Of a stretch of DNA of 64,000 nt, positions 1,419-44,578 are shown one piece after another. This DNA comes from an uncultured Rivularia sp. (GTDB lineage: Bacteria; Cyanobacteriota; Cyanobacteriia; Cyanobacteriales; Nostocaceae): assembly GCA_963665115.1 (NCBI GenBank), contig OY762007.1, forward strand, positions 4,928,001 to 4,992,000, in the 5' to 3' direction. The number at the start of each line of letters is the position of its first letter. The first letter of the stretch is position 1. The translations under genes and the position numbers were made by a program. Below the pieces are notes generated by a model. It saw only the letters and a list, made by a program, of their open reading frames with translations, had not been told where the DNA came from and searched no databases.

Positions 1419-3822
1419 ATGAGCGACAAAAACTATAATTCTCCAAGCAATAATATTCTCTTTCAAGAAGTTTTAAGACTTGTTGAAAATTTAATTATGG
1501 CTAAGACAGACAAACATCTTTCAAATATCGAGGTTTTAGTTTTACGCGGTTCTTGGAAAGGTCATAAATACAACCAAATCGCCGCTGAGGGTGGTTATAC
1601 TGACGAGTATTTAAAAAATGACATCGGGCCAAAACTTTGGAAACGTTTATCACTGGCTTTAGAAAAAAAAGTTACAAAAAATAATTTTAAAGCAATTCTT
1701 GAGCAATATATTTATCAAGCAGAAAAAGGAAAATCTATAGCTAATAAATTATTTACTAAAGAAAGTTTTCTCGAACCAAATAATTTTACACAAACACCAC
1801 AACCTACATATCATAATCTTCCCTCGCGAGACTATACAAGATTAGTTGGTCGAGAAGCCCAAGCAAAAAAACTTTTGGAATTACTTTCTTTTGAATGGTC
1901 AATTCCTTGTGTCAGTATTGAAGGAATTGGAGGTGCTGGAAAAACAACTTTAGCTTTAGAAATTGCTTATCGTTGTTTAAAAGCAAGTAATGATGTTTAC
2001 CTGGGAAGAACCTCAGAAAATAATCTACCCTCTTTTGAATTAATAGTATTCACCTCTGCTAAATCTCACTTTTTTACACCCACAGGCGTTCTACCTCGCT
2101 TAAGAAGAGAAAGAGGATTAGTAGATATTTTTACAAGTATTATACGTACAATTAGCTTTTACGATTCTCAAACAACAAGTTTTGAAGAAACCTACGAGCA
2201 AATTTACAAATGCTTGGCAAATATGCGAACTTTGCTGATTATTGATAATTTAGATACCTTAGAAGAACAACAGCAAGTACTAAGCTTTTTATACGAACTT
2301 CCTCCAACAGTTAAAGCTTTAATCACTAGTAGAGAAAAAACCCCTTTCAATACTGTTGCTCTATCATCTTTGACTAAAACTGAAGCTTTAATATTAATTC
2401 AACAGCAGGCAGATGAAAAGCAAGTAGATTTGAATTTGAAGCAGTGCGTTTCAACTCTATCAAACTACAGGAGGAATTCCTGCTGCAATTATCTATGCCA
2501 TAAGTCAGCTAGCCGCTGGTTATACCTTCGATAGTACAACTTCTCAGTTAATGCCAACTCAAGGAGACTTCTGCCGTTTCTACTTTGAAAGCTCCGTGCA
2601 GAAACTGAAAGAAAAAGCAGCACATAAATTTTTAATGGCTTTGTCACTATTTACTAAACCTGCTTACTCCGAAACATTAAAGGCTATTGCTGGTGTAGAA
2701 AATCCTTTGGATGTAGCTGATGGTTTCGCTAAGTTGCAACAACTTTCTTTGATAAATTATCGTCAAGGACGTTACGAGATGCTACATTTGACTCGTGAAT
2801 ACGCACTTTCGGAAATGTCTAGTAATCCTGAATTTGAAATCAGTGCGCGTAACCGTTGGGTAAACTGGTATCTTAACTTTGCCCAAGAGCATGGGTGTAA
2901 AGATTGGCGAGAATGGCAAGATTATCAACACCTTGAAAATGAATGGGATAATTTGACAGACGTGCTTGAATGGTGCATAGCAAATAATCGTTATTATGAT
3001 GCCTGCAAACTTTGGCAATACATGAAATGTTACACATATTCACTTGCCTATCGTCAAAATCGTTTAAGTTTTTGGAATGCGCCGTTGTTATGGTTAGAAT
3101 GGCTTGGTGAAGCAGCAGTTGAGCGCGAAGACTTTAAAACCGCTGCTGAAATAATTGGCGATCGCGCTTGGAAGTTGACGTTAATAGGGCAAGAGCAGCA
3201 TTTAGCTGTAGCTAATAATTTGTTTAGTCAAGCTTGGCAATTACATCAACACCTTACATTAGATATGCAAGTGGATTTAGCGATTCATATAGGTGTATGG
3301 CATATCCAAGAGCAGCAATTTTTGCAAGCAACTCACTGGCTTAATCAAGCTCAAAATTTATTAGATAATTCCGATAGCTTAGATAATCTTCAAATTGATT
3401 CTTATATTAAAACTCGCTTATCCTTACACATTATTTATTATCAAGGCGAGATCTATTATAAAACTGAAAATTATCAAGAAAGTAAAATTTTATTTAAACA
3501 AATATTTCAACAAGCTCAATCAATTGGTTGGAGACGTGCGAGTCTTCTTGCTAAAGACTTTTTGGCTGATATTGCGATTAAGCAGGGAAAATTAAAGCAG
3601 GCACAAAATTATTTAGTAGAAATTTTGCAAGTAGCAGAAGATAATCAAGATAAATGTAGCCGAGCATATACAAAGCGTTCTTTAGCTCGCTTGGAAAGAA
3701 AATTAGGCAATTTGACTATAGCCCAACGCTGGATAAATGAAGCAATGGCAGATTTTGAAACTTTAGGCATGAAGCCAGAAGTACGAGAAGCTCAAGCATT
3801 ACTTCAAGCTATTGAATCTTAA
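1419..3822 (+). CDS. N-terminal HTH-like domain + NB-ARC (STAND) NTPase + TPR-like helical repeats; one gene split by a frameshift near 2448
   Basis: Walker A GIGGAGKTT, Walker B LLIIDNLD, LITSR; the alternative frame from ~2449 reads FQLYQTTGGIPAAI (GxP motif) and runs directly into ORF 2551..3822. Confidence 0.8.
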
Positions 3823-40110: not shown

Positions 40111-40417
40111 TTCGTAGTAAGGACTTTAGTCCCTCATCTCCAGATACCTGGCGATTGAATATGCTGCACCTATTGGTGAACGCGGCTACACAGGCAAAGT
40201 CCACCTTCGTGGACTAAATATTTAATGTTTATTGTAGGGTGTGTTATGGCGACGAAATGGTTGTAGGGAAACAGATATGTTAGTTAATGCCGTAACGCAC
40301 CGTCTTGTTTTAGCGAAGTAATCTTTTAATTTTACTAGGGCGTTAAAGTCCTGGCTACACAGGCAAATTTCATCTGTGTGGGCTGAAAATTCTATCGATT
40401 TAATTCGCTACGAGCGA

Positions 40418-40461
40418 ACTAAATTCACAATATTCCAAATTTATGGTATATTGAATTTAGT
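40418..40461 (+). promoter_or_regulatory. Sigma70-like promoter embedded in a palindrome (candidate operator) upstream of the retron leader
   Basis: TTCACA (40424-29), 17-nt spacer, TG-n-TATATT (40447-52); perfect inverted repeat ACTAAATTCA (40418-27)/TGAATTTAGT (40452-61). Confidence 0.55.
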
Positions 40462-40462
40462 C

Positions 40463-41076
40463 GGATAAAAGGAGATGTTTGCCATTTACTGGATTGCTTC
40501 GGCATTCCGTGGAAGATAGTTATATATCTTCTATCGTGTTTCTAATTTATCTATTTGAGAAACGTGTAATTCACGCGGGTTGCCACACTAGAGACTACTT
40601 AAAGACTCCAGGAAAGAAACCTCAATGAAATTATCATTGCACGATTCCTAGAAATGTTTAGTAAACATAGAACTGTAATTATTTCCCCTATGAGTACGTT
40701 GTTCTAGGTTACTAACTAAACTAAATTAGGAAAATGAATATGAATAGAAAACACTCAAGCGCAGCTTTAGCAAATTAGCTGCGTAGGTATGGGGAGGGTT
40801 AAAACTGCTGTTCTCCTGGTTTGTTTGAGGCAACACTTATTTGTGGAAACTTGAATAAGTGCAAACAAAACATATGCATGAGGTTTTTATGCAAGAAAAA
40901 TCCGATAAACAGCAGCAGCAATCGAAAAAGCGTAAATCAAAACGGTGGCTGAAATGGCTCCGTCAACCTCAAACGCTCCGTCTACTGTTACAACTTGGTA
41001 CAATCATTTTTAATATCTTAAAATGGTTGGTCGAACGTTCACATGGTTGATATAGATTGCTTACCTCCTTTTATCT
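40463..41076 (+). ncRNA. Putative retron msr-msd-like structured RNA that also contains a small ORF
   Basis: GATAAAAGGAG (40464-74) is the exact reverse complement of CTCCTTTTATC (41065-75); at least seven internal stems including a C(UUCG)G hairpin; directly upstream of the HTH-RT genes. Confidence 0.7.
40889..41050 (+). CDS. 53-aa basic/amphipathic small protein, candidate retron effector
   Basis: GAGG RBS at 40880-83, ATG 40889; MQEKSDKQQQQSKKRKSKRWLKWLRQPQTLRLLLQLGTIIFNILKWLVERSHG. Confidence 0.6.
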   Translation: MQEKSDKQQQQSKKRKSKRWLKWLRQPQTLRLLLQLGTIIFNILKWLVERSHG

Positions 41077-41116
41077 ATAAAACTCCTTAATATCCTCTGT
41101 TCAAAGGAGGTTAACA

Positions 41117-41425
41117 ATGTTAAATGAGGCTCTAAGATTAATTAGAGTATTCTACGATTTACCACAGAAGCAACTTGCAGAGAAATTAGGAATATCTAAA
41201 TCATATCTTTCAGAAATTGAGTCGGGAAAAAAGACTCCTACAATTGATTTGCTAAATCGTTACGCAGATTTTTTCGATATCCCAGCATCCTCAATTATGT
41301 TCTTTTCAGAAAGCTTAGAAAAGGATGCAAAAGTAGAAAAACTGAGAAGTTTTGTATCTTCTAAAATTATAGCTATTCTTAACTTTATTGCTGAAAGGTC
41401 TGGTAATTCTTATGCCGAAAAATAA
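41117..41425 (+). CDS. XRE/Cro-like helix-turn-helix protein associated with the retron RT
   Basis: LRLIR..LPQKQLAEKLGISKSYLSEIESGKKTP; strong AAGGAGG RBS; overlaps the RT start. Confidence 0.9.
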   Translation: MLNEALRLIRVFYDLPQKQLAEKLGISKSYLSEIESGKKTPTIDLLNRYADFFDIPASSIMFFSESLEKDAKVEKLRSFVSSKIIAILNFIAERSGNSYAEK

Positions 41426-42311
41426 GCATACAATATATGAATTAGATCAATCACCTTTTTACTGTTTGAAGTCTAAAGCGAAACTCGAAAAGCTTTTACT
41501 TATAACTAAAAGCAAACTTCAAATGCTTACTAAATCAGAAGATTTGTATCGCGAGAGTAATATTTATGGAAAAAATGGTAAACCTCGTCCCGTACAAAAA
41601 CCAAGACCTGATTTAAAAAGAGTTCAAAAGCGAATTGAAGAGCTTTTAAAACGAATAAAGCTTCCAAGTTATATATATGCTCCTGCGAGGGGGCTTTCCC
41701 ATATTAATAATGCTCAAGCTCATATAAATGCTGTAGTCCTAAGAACGCTTGATATTGAAAAATACTTTCCTTCTACACCATCAAGGCACGTTTATTCATT
41801 CTTCCACAAACGGATGAAATGTTCTCCAGATGTTGCTGGAATTTTAAATAAGATATTAACATTCAAAGGTTATTTACCAACTGGCAGTCCATCAAGTCCA
41901 ATTATTTCCTATTTTTCACATATTGATATGTGGGAATCAATATACGAAATTGTGAATCAAGCTAATTGTAATTTAGCTGTTTACATGGACGATGTAACTA
42001 TTTCAGGTGATGTTGTTCCTGACAAATTGATTTGGCAAATAAAGCAGCAGTTTTATAGCTGTGGATTGCGTAGTAATAAACAGAAAGAAAAATTTTACGT
42101 TGGCAAAAAGTCATCTGAAGTAACTGGAATCATTATCAAAGAAGGTAAGTTAAAGATTCCTAATCGTATACATTGGAAAATGTATAAGATTCGTCTAACT
42201 CTTCATTCAGAAACTCAGCCAAACAAACGTAAGAAGCTGATGCAACAATTGGAAAGTTTAAAGGCATATGAGCGACAAATTCTAATATCAAACTCTGCTT
42301 CATTAAATTGA
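41412..42311 (+). CDS. Retron-type reverse transcriptase (299 aa from ATG 41412)
   Basis: KPRPVQKP..LKRVQKRI, NAQAH (retron NAxxH), LDIEKYFPS, LPTGSPSSP, YMDD catalytic motif, VTG (region Y); no maturase or endonuclease extension. Confidence 0.9.
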   Translation: MPKNKHTIYELDQSPFYCLKSKAKLEKLLLITKSKLQMLTKSEDLYRESNIYGKNGKPRPVQKPRPDLKRVQKRIEELLKRIKLPSYIYAPARGLSHINNAQAHINAVVLRTLDIEKYFPSTPSRHVYSFFHKRMKCSPDVAGILNKILTFKGYLPTGSPSSPIISYFSHIDMWESIYEIVNQANCNLAVYMDDVTISGDVVPDKLIWQIKQQFYSCGLRSNKQKEKFYVGKKSSEVTGIIIKEGKLKIPNRIHWKMYKIRLTLHSETQPNKRKKLMQQLESLKAYERQILISNSASLN

Positions 42312-42364: not shown

Positions 42365-42592
42365 ATGAACACTTCTATCATTGACGAAGTAATTGAACAA
42401 CTCGGAACCATGCCGCAGCACTTACAATCGCAAGTACTAGATTTTGCTCGTAAACTTGTACAAAACGAAGTTAAAGGTACTCCTGGTTCGCAATTACTGC
42501 GTTTTGCAGGTTCTATTCCTGCTAATGACGTTAAATTAATGAGGGAAGCGATTGAACAAGACTGCGAACAGGTAGATGTCAATAAGTGGTAG
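42365..42592 (+). CDS. Putative antitoxin (DUF2281-like) of a PIN toxin-antitoxin pair
   Basis: 75 aa, MP..LQ.QVLDFAR.L..G..G..LLRFAG.I; overlaps the downstream PIN gene. Confidence 0.7.
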   Translation: MNTSIIDEVIEQLGTMPQHLQSQVLDFARKLVQNEVKGTPGSQLLRFAGSIPANDVKLMREAIEQDCEQVDVNKW

Positions 42593-42971
42593 GTTCTTGC
42601 TAGATACAAACATTATCATTGCTCTCTTTGCAGATGAAGAAGCAGTTAAAAATAAGCTTGCTCAAGCCAACGAAGTTTTTATTCCAAGCAATGCTATTGG
42701 TGAATTGTGTTACGGTGCTAGAAAATCGGGGCGAGTTCAGGCAAATCTAGCAAGAGTTGATGAATTGATTGCGAACAGTGCAGTGCTTGAATGTGATGCT
42801 GAAACTGCTCGGCAATACGGTGAAGTCAAAAACCAGTTAAGGTTAAAAGGTCGTCCGTTACCTGAGAATGACATTTGGATTGCAGCCGTTGCCTTACAGC
42901 ATAATTTAGTTTTGGTAACACGCGATGCTCATTTTCAGCAAGTTGAGAATTTGCAATCTGTCAATTGGTAA
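42576..42971 (+). CDS. vapC: VapC-family PIN-domain ribonuclease toxin
   Basis: LLDTNIII, GEL..GA, NDIWIAAVA, LVTRDAHF. Confidence 0.9.
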   Translation: MSISGRFLLDTNIIIALFADEEAVKNKLAQANEVFIPSNAIGELCYGARKSGRVQANLARVDELIANSAVLECDAETARQYGEVKNQLRLKGRPLPENDIWIAAVALQHNLVLVTRDAHFQQVENLQSVNW

Positions 42972-43189
42972 ATATTACCGTATAAATAGAATGCAATTAT
43001 TTGATTGTTTTTCGCTGCTTCACAGGTTTTCTCTCACGAAAATAACTAATCAAATACTCAGTCTTATTGATAAGACTTCTGCTATTAGCCCAGGGTTTGC
43101 AACCCTGGGTGGTTTAGGTTTAGAAGGAACAATATCAAACAAAAACTCCCAATTGACTTTATAATAAGTTTCAAGCGGAGAAATAAACC

Positions 43190-43783
43190 TTGAAACTAAT
43201 TTTAGTTGCCCCCGAATCATTATTAACAGCAGCTTTTCAACAACATTTCAATTATTTCCCTAACATCGAAATTGTTAACAACTACTTTGAATGGTTGCCT
43301 GTTTTCGATTGTTTAGTTAGCCCTGCAAATTCGTTTGGGATGATGGATGGTGGTATGGATGCAGCCATTATCAAGTTTTTTGGAGATTCCTTGATGGAAA
43401 AGGTGCAGCAGCGCATCCTTACAGATTATTTAGGAGAGCAACCTGTAGGAACATCAATGATTGTAGAAACAGGTAATCGTAAACATCCATTTCTCGCACA
43501 TACACCTACCATGCGGGTTCCCATGTCTATCGTAGGGACGGATGTTCCTTATGTAGCGATGTGGGCTATGCTTTTAGCAGTGCGTCGTCACAACCAATCT
43601 TCTCAGCATAAAATTAACACCGTTGCTTGTCCCGGTTTGGGTACGGGAATCGGTAGAATTGATTACGATGAAGCAGCCAGACAAATGGCTTTAGCTTACG
43701 ATAATTTTCTTTATCCCCCGAAGCATCTTAATTGTTTTGTTGCAGCTTCCAGACAACTTTTGATTTGGGAAGGTAATGGGTAA
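43190..43783 (+). CDS. Macrodomain (ADP-ribose binding/hydrolase) protein
   Basis: VSPANSFGMMDGGMDAAI, HTPTM, CPGLGTGIG; TTG start after GGAG. Confidence 0.87.
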   Translation: MKLILVAPESLLTAAFQQHFNYFPNIEIVNNYFEWLPVFDCLVSPANSFGMMDGGMDAAIIKFFGDSLMEKVQQRILTDYLGEQPVGTSMIVETGNRKHPFLAHTPTMRVPMSIVGTDVPYVAMWAMLLAVRRHNQSSQHKINTVACPGLGTGIGRIDYDEAARQMALAYDNFLYPPKHLNCFVAASRQLLIWEGNG

Positions 43784-43863
43784 TTGGTAATAGTAAATGT
43801 TCCTACCCCAATATTTTTTTGTTTGGGAAGGTGGTAATTAGTAATTTGTGGGAACATTTAATG
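43731..43863. repeat. Direct repeat copy 1 (copy 2 at ~44621-44755), flanking the YefM/RelE module
   Basis: First 44 bp match at 42/44 (ATTGTTTTrTTGCAGCTTCCAGACArCTTTTGATTTGGGAAGGT); AATGTTCCTACCCC and GAACATTTAAT also shared. Confidence 0.85.
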
Positions 43864-43868
43864 ATGCG

Positions 43869-44213
43869 TTATGGTTCTAACAATTTCTCCATCAGCGTAT
43901 AAATATCGTTTTTATCACCTTCTTTCCGTAAACCTATTCCTACTACTAAAACTATTATTTTCTCAAGTTCAACTTTGTAAATAATTCTGTAGCGTTGACC
44001 TACTGCTCTAAGACTGCGATAACCTAAAAGATAATCGACTAAAGCTTTACCTTGAAGAAGTGGATCTGTTTTTAACTTATTTATGCGTTGGCTCAAGCCT
44101 TTTCGATGACGCTTATCTTTAATACCGCTTAACATTTCTAATGCTAGCGGTGTCAGTTGAATTTCATACTCGGTATTAGCGGGCTGATTTGTATCTGAGT
44201 CCAACTTATTCAA
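43869..44213 (-). CDS. RelE/ParE family toxin
   Basis: YEIQLTP.A...L, GKAL...L.GYRSLRAVGQRYRIIY.V....VLVVGIG.R. Confidence 0.87.
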   Translation of the reverse strand: MNKLDSDTNQPANTEYEIQLTPLALEMLSGIKDKRHRKGLSQRINKLKTDPLLQGKALVDYLLGYRSLRAVGQRYRIIYKVELEKIIVLVVGIGLRKEGDKNDIYTLMEKLLEP

Positions 44214-44311
44214 ACTTCCCTAAAATTCAAGCACCTTACAATTAGAAATGTACATTAAAGTGTACATTTGTAGAAGCAGTATGGGAAAGTCCAAAAATAT
44301 ACTTACTAGAT

Positions 44312-44578
44312 TTATTCAAGTCCAAGTTTAGCTTTTGCTTCCTCCCAAGTTATAGTTTCTCCTCTTTGAGCCTGCTGAATACTTTCTTGCAACTGTTTGC
44401 TGAATTTTTTATCGGAAAGAATAGCTAAAGTTTCCATCATAGATTCAAATTTTTCAAAGCTAAGTGCTGCCATTACTGGCTTACCATGCTTAGTAATAAT
44501 TACTGCATCGTCTTTCAACTCATCGGGCAAATTTAATAACTGCTGTCTAGCTTCTGTAATAGTTAGATACTTAGGCAT
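44312..44578 (-). CDS. Phd/YefM family antitoxin
   Basis: TITEARQQL..L, VIITKHGKPV, FESMMETL.IL. Confidence 0.9.
   Translation of the reverse strand: MPKYLTITEARQQLLNLPDELKDDAVIITKHGKPVMAALSFEKFESMMETLAILSDKKFSKQLQESIQQAQRGETITWEEAKAKLGLE

Follow-up and report, generated by a model that had tools for sequence, protein, structure and literature searches.

The 64,000-nucleotide stretch of DNA analysed here (the window) carries what is, on the evidence of its sequence, a new cyanobacterial example of a type VI retron, made up of a small protein (SP), an HTH protein and a reverse transcriptase (RT). We put at roughly 60% the probability that the SP gene lies within a conserved three-arm RNA and goes untranslated until phage-induced msDNA likely opens the arm that holds its start, as in Retron-Vpa2. 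For this locus the gene order, the coding constraint on SP and the conserved helices with compensatory changes round its start are established.

From upstream to downstream, the SP open reading frame is followed by the 102-aa HTH gene and then by the 298-aa RT, the start of which overlaps the HTH gene by 11 nt (Table 1). Two public-run contigs agree with the letters of the stretch with zero differences, and these contigs may be its source. No RNA run was listed as containing the stretch, an outcome that carries no weight for or against expression. The RT, with its YMDD motif intact, belongs to the type VI group, since the second-best PADLOC family scored E 3e-44 compared to 1e-90 for RT_VI, and the Cro/C1-type HTH protein falls within the 91–110 aa of type VI proteins encoded upstream of, or overlapping, the RT. 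Furthermore, the upstream RNA is structured, with msr-like hairpins and a long stem (z −4.5; compensatory changes). Because the HTH and RT genes downstream of the 53-aa ORF fit type VI models, we take the ORF to be the SP of this type. The nearest named relatives are cyanobacterial, and such an RT is present in 29 of the 389 genomes of the window's family, its own genome counted. The RT of the window is only 33–35% identical to type VI RTs of Vibrio parahaemolyticus, and the accessions shown for three Vibrio clusters do not include the RT of Vpa2; a scan of viral contigs with a Vibrio RT gave no match. An Rfam search of the stretch returned no family at its threshold, and no terminator-like site was found in 40300–41250. 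For comparison we examined 54 loci, 50 of them with an HTH match; once 8 distant loci and 4 duplicates had been removed, 38 remained, the window among them.

Table 1 Features of the retron locus, in window coordinates.
Feature	Position	Strand	Evidence
Palindrome TTCGC-N5-GCGAA, 5 nt ahead of the −35 box	40404..40418	.	likely HTH operator
Sigma-70-like promoter TTCACA-17-TATATT with TG	40424..40452	+	best match in the region, 10/12; −10 conserved in alignment
a1, predicted to pair with the post-stop arm in this genome	40464..40474	+	not in most relatives
5' segment TTGCC, complement of the two direct-repeat loops	40479..40483	+	98% and 93% of cells paired
Two msr-like stem-loops	40490..40532 (40490–509, 40511–32)	+	9 and 6 compensatory events; controls 0–1
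Long variable stem, predicted msd template, contains 40617–24	40536..40754	+	base helix 95% paired
Conserved hairpin, first repeat copy in loop; predicted 5' stem-loop of msDNA	40760..40783	+	AGCAA here, mostly GGCAA
IR1, with which the post-stop arm usually pairs in the family	40787..40800	+	88–90% of cells paired; preferred in 31/37 loci
5' strand of helix closing the RBS/AUG arm, pairs with 40908–15 inside the ORF	40805..40812	+	99% of cells paired
Riboregulator-like stem, second repeat copy AGGCAA (40828–33) in internal loop	40818..40871	+	4 and 10 compensatory events
Local hairpin over weak RBS and AUG	40875..40893	+	pair probability 0.81–0.99
SP, 53 aa, net charge +10, two predicted helices; probable toxin	40889..41050	+	conservation, dN/dS
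Post-stop arm: 41055–61 pairs with 40917–23; 41062–76 is IR2 (earlier a2)	41055..41076	+	6 compensatory events in first helix
Short hairpin over the HTH ribosome-binding site	41093..41110	+	weak: 92% paired, 0 compensatory events, slid controls ≤83%
Cro/C1-type HTH gene, 102 aa	41117..41425	+	PADLOC HTH_VI E 2e-36; Pfam HTH_3
Retron RT, 298 aa from ATG, YMDD intact	41415..42311	+	PADLOC RT_VI E 1e-90

A first-pass annotation of this DNA, with coordinates and letters that were all correct, had proposed that a 53-aa candidate toxin is encoded inside the retron RNA. The ORF indeed encodes 53 aa, and its stop lies 14 nt before an arm (41065–75) that is itself complementary to 40464–74. The small-protein gene, upstream of the HTH gene, is intact in 37 of the 38 cyanobacterial loci, stands above chance as a reading frame and evolves under constraint (dN/dS 0.28 in 32 loci, 5 near-duplicates excluded), while all five remaining frames over it are interrupted by stops in 32/32 loci. 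Its synonymous divergence is lower than that of the HTH gene in the same loci (0.47 compared to 0.60), which would follow if the RNA fold is maintained as well. Length is likewise held, at 52–58 aa in 35 of 37 loci. A profile search collected 57 relatives with no consistent family name among them, and neither PADLOC nor Pfam has a meaningful model for the protein. AlphaFold2 predicted helices at residues 3–24 and 27–52 (pLDDT 80.5, pTM 0.35), and the best 19-residue hydropathy is 1.56; charge, helices and hydropathy would be compatible with membrane activity. By analogy with Vpa2 and Sen3, SP is a probable toxin. Two upstream starts, GTG 40859 and ATG 40874, were rejected, as they have no ribosome-binding site and are absent from most relatives. 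In one relative (L031), an insertion of ~105 nt interrupts the SP gene (about 2800–2910, minus strand) while the RT and HTH genes look intact.

In the consensus fold of the 38 loci, inverted repeats close a three-arm RNA that encloses the SP gene, with the msr hairpins and the long template stem in one arm, the RBS and AUG in a second, and the rest of the ORF in the third. Compensatory events were counted on a phylogeny of the HTH and RT genes; slid controls of the msr, riboregulator, third-arm and closing helices gave 0–1 such events. Overall, 95% of the cells of the structure are paired, compared to 88.8% in shuffled and 34–47% in slid versions. The inner part of the variable stem ranges over 55–254 nt across relatives and is unalignable. 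When models built from the cyanobacterial loci only were applied to distant loci, they picked out corresponding elements upstream of SP, several of them with weak E-values. The closure by a1 and a2 put forward in the first-pass annotation is predicted in the genome of the window, where a1 is the preferred partner of the post-stop arm and the duplex energies for the two partners are nearly equal (−17.2 and −16.1); however, the arm prefers 40787–800 in 31 of 37 loci, so that this pairing does not extend to most of the family. The ORF is enclosed whichever partner the arm takes. Formal covariation for 40787–800 is weak, with one event per half and slid controls up to 81% paired. We also observed a 5-bp pairing, GGAGA/TCTCC, of 40471–40475 with 40812–40816 (88% of cells paired, 3 compensatory events), which runs across the arm-closing helix and may represent a conformation used for priming. 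A candidate hairpin over the HTH start (41056–71/41103–18) had an ensemble probability of 0 and was discarded.

Two features of the fold bear on the start of SP. The first is the local hairpin 40875–81/40887–93 already noted in the first-pass annotation, which in the window is predicted to pair the AUG with a probability of 0.99 and is stronger than chance (−6.1 kcal/mol; 2/100 shuffles as good). Among the relatives, the RBS or AUG is predicted to be paired at >0.6 in 28/37 loci, in keeping with a Vpa2-type start held in stem-loops, and a hairpin of −2 kcal/mol or lower covers one or the other in 33/37, with different letters; only 6/37 of these local hairpins are better than 95% of shuffles. 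The second is the helix 40805–12/40908–15, which on comparative evidence is the conserved long-range lock, instead of the 40617–24 segment considered below. We counted 2 compensatory events in this helix and 0–1 in slid controls, and both sides have changed at 3 of its 8 pairs, one such change exchanging Gln and Arg at an SP position. The helix is thus maintained even where it alters the protein. Together with 40818–27/40862–71 it bounds a start-region loop, which measures 36–42 nt in all but two of 14 loci (57 and 60 nt in those two). Blocking the closing strand in silico lowered the mean opening energy from 11.0 to 7.7 kcal/mol (14 of the 37 loci), and blocking the riboregulator loop with the outer stem lowered it from 11.0 to 9.1 kcal/mol in the same loci. 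In the window alone, the closing-strand block gave 8.8 kcal/mol and the riboregulator-loop block took the energy only from 10.5 to 10.2 kcal/mol, since it is the local hairpin that prevails there.

In Retron-Vpa2, one RNA is both the RT template and the repressed mRNA of a small toxin that is released on infection, and a direct repeat is present in the msd and riboregulator loops, where the DNA copy of the first is proposed to pair with the second, according to the main text of the preprint (10.1101/2025.10.22.683967). In our set the repeat is at least 5 nt long in 28/38 loci, at least 7 nt in 9/38 and at most 4 nt in 10/38; in the window only 4 nt are exact (GCAA), compared to the 7 nt by which the Vpa2 repeat is defined. 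The two copies vary in step, with 5.84 matching nt compared to 5.07 under permutation (0/10000 permutations, 19 representatives). In 12 loci where the loops were located by model, 4 of them scoring zero, the covariation had p 5e-5; with loose windows in 19 distant loci p was 0.038, and with fully automatic loop location, which often failed in distant loci, it was 0.06 (24 loci). The TTGCC segment near the 5' end, which contains an invariant G40481 as a candidate priming G, shows one compensatory event with each of the two loops (permutation p 0.0005 and 0.027). Judged by eye from folds, the triple of repeat, repeat and 5' segment recurs in 17 of 21 distant loci with differing letter sets, which include AAGAC/GTCTT, ATGAC/GTCAT, GATGGC/GCCATC and GGCGA/TCGCC; it is weak in L060 and L062, partial in L015 and missing in L016. 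Tests independent of the eye gave p 0.063 and 0.035 (7 loci) and 0.09 and 0.06 (19 loci). All of these p values for the repeat and the 5' segment overstate the significance because the loci are related. Since an msDNA copy of the msd loop would share letters with the 5' segment, the arrangement suggests strand displacement. Neither the 5' complementary segment nor the promoter palindrome described below is named in the main texts of the Vpa2 and Sen3 preprints, and Fig. S4 of the former may show a 5' pairing.

Taken as a Vpa2-like system, the locus would work as follows. One transcript would start at about 40459, with the RBS and AUG shut in the local hairpin, in the loop closed by 40805–12/40908–15 and 40818–27/40862–71. 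The RT would copy from near 40786 back through the hairpin 40760–83 and the variable stem, and the DNA copy of the hairpin loop could then pair with the loop 40828–33, perhaps displacing the 5' RNA segment 40479–83, which has the same letters. The cationic, amphipathic peptide thus released would arrest the cell, while the HTH protein would restrain the RT and probably also bind the promoter palindrome. The proposal in the first-pass annotation that a single RNA serves the RT as template and doubles as a repressed mRNA for the toxin fits the Vpa2 mechanism, and the architecture matches, although one of the two locks it named, 40617–24, is a chance complement. The 4-nt repeat and the small effect of the riboregulator-loop block in the window both count against a Vpa2-like mode in this copy. 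For the reading in general, the repeats of at most 4 nt in 10/38 loci, the few local hairpins that outdo 95% of shuffles (6/37), the constitutive toxin of Sen3 and the low RT identity to V. parahaemolyticus weigh on the same side. We hold more tentatively, at odds below even, a fuller version of the scheme for type VI retrons, in which a 5' RNA latch containing the candidate priming G pairs at rest with the riboregulator or msd loop, msDNA, whose 5' loop shares the latch's letters, displaces it and frees the toxin start, and the HTH protein adds transcriptional control by binding a promoter palindrome shared across phyla.

The strongest competing explanation, though an unlikely one, is that SP is made constitutively and is kept inactive by the HTH protein, the RNA fold serving the RT complex and not translation. 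Such control has been shown for Retron-Sen3, which has a similar RNA layout and in which the toxin is constitutive even though the RBS is buried and inverted repeats enclose the ORF, as the main text of that preprint describes (10.64898/2026.04.27.721009). The modest local start hairpins of most relatives would also agree with it. However, SP here has neither the 25-residue extension nor the length of the Sen3 cluster, and the direct repeat, which is unnamed in the Sen3 text, co-varies here. The retention of the start-closing helix even where SP residues change likewise argues against Sen3-like control.

Less probable still is that the family is Vpa2-like and this copy is weakened or silent. 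The C-terminus of SP (41035–41047) is ERSHG, where relatives that are 90–95% identical end in ELLQD, the usual letters; none of its last five residues is hydrophobic, compared to at least two in 36/36 others. The short repeat, the weak RBS, the strong hairpin and the shift of the post-stop arm to the 5' end would all point in the same direction. Against this, a second protein, P0026, also ends in ERSHG, which makes the ending a lineage variant, and the three genes are intact with a likely operator and a promoter near consensus.

The segment TGAGGTTT (40879–86) over the RBS is, as reported in the first-pass annotation, an exact complement of AAACCTCA (40617–24), but the pairing has a predicted probability of only 0.005 and is at chance level. 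Some portion of the 20-nt start region met with an 8-nt complement in 609/5000 shuffles, and this exact 8-mer did so in 49/5000; 129 of the 594 20-mers of this RNA have an equivalent distant complement. The segment sits in the unalignable part of the template stem, where letters differ even between nearest relatives; an 8-nt start-region complement within the variable stem was found in 3/37 loci and was significant in 0/37. Removing the template in silico left the start region shut, with an opening energy that went from a mean of 10.5 to 11.0 kcal/mol in 14 loci and remained 10.5 kcal/mol in the window, so the claim that reverse transcription removes an anti-RBS is unsupported. A switch in which 40617–24 holds the RBS until reverse transcription destroys it is thus very improbable, its exact 8-nt match notwithstanding.

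Transcription is predicted to start near 40459, downstream of the sigma-70-like promoter, and the palindrome just upstream of the −35 box is likely the operator of the HTH protein. When up to 2 mismatches are allowed, it was found in 57 of 61 loci with an HTH match, which span cyanobacteria, proteobacteria and phages, compared to 5 of 61 control stretches inside the RT. The window contains one exact copy where 0.02 are expected, and the whole genome has 3 exact sites compared to 6 for a control pattern, which indicates that the palindrome is not a general regulon motif. Its position resembles that of the C-boxes of restriction-modification controller proteins. In many cyanobacterial loci a weaker half-site lies over the −35 box. 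The words operator, palindrome, pseudoknot and cyanobacteria are absent from the main texts of both preprints. Sen3 depends on a 5-bp stem-loop upstream of its 5' repeat, to which the palindrome may or may not correspond.

Upstream of the promoter, at 40184–40222 and 40353–40391, are two 39-nt copies that are 79% alike and contain an internal hairpin; one has a weak, below-threshold match to Rfam CRISPR-DR28, and the pair is probably a dispersed repeat. Downstream, 42365–44578 holds a DUF2281-PIN (VapBC-like) pair, a macro-domain gene and a RelE/YefM-like pair, the last recognized by translation alone; from these gene assignments the region is a small toxin-antitoxin cluster. Among the other loci, a TIR-domain gene follows the type VI RT on two alphaproteobacterial plasmids (L055:2465–3424 and L061:2205–3170), and temperate phages carry type VI retrons (L057, L058, L064, L065, L066 and L072), in several records of which the SP gene is unannotated or mis-started.

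These results extend type VI retrons with RNA-embedded probable toxins to filamentous cyanobacteria, with an SP family that has no model. Because this kind of system has been known since 2025, the finding itself is unsurprising, and the added value lies in two conserved elements, the 5' segment and the palindrome. The Vpa2 study, in its main text, does not settle by what route msDNA relieves the block on translation or what the target of the HTH domain is (10.1101/2025.10.22.683967), and the co-varying repeat, the 5' segment and the palindrome pinpoint bases whose mutation would address both questions. A literature search, which covered papers outside subscription, found no further studies of type VI mechanism.

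In the part of Mestre et al. 2020 drawn on here (PMC7736814), type VI is described with a clade 3 RT, a 91–110 aa HTH protein of the Cro/C1 type, plus a small auxiliary protein, as in the present locus, and the HTH protein is only suggested to act in transcription; SP here is shorter than the 75–79 aa clusters of that study and differs in having no meaningful PADLOC or Pfam model. As far as the main text of its preprint describes it, Sen3 (Salmonella enterica, cl2075) shares the SP-HTH-RT order, structure inside the SP coding region, and an IR1 at the end of the template stem that pairs with an IR2 past the SP stop. In contrast, the Sen3 SP is 79 aa long with an N-terminal extension (75–79 aa in cl2075, compared to 53 aa here) and is controlled post-translationally, and a direct repeat goes unreported in that text. 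Compared to Vpa2 (V. parahaemolyticus), again as described in the preprint's main text, the window differs in its cyanobacterial lineage, in an RNA of about 620 nt compared to 470, in a predicted template of about 250 nt compared to an 86-nt msDNA, and in a repeat of just 4 nt in this copy compared to 7. The two share the SP-HTH-RT order, an SP gene within a three-arm hybrid RNA closed by inverted repeats, the placement of RBS and AUG within stems, repeat copies in the msd and riboregulator loops, which in most of our loci are shorter than the 7 nt of Vpa2, an SP of similar length (53 aa here and 55 aa in Vpa2) and an Arg at position 7 of the HTH protein.
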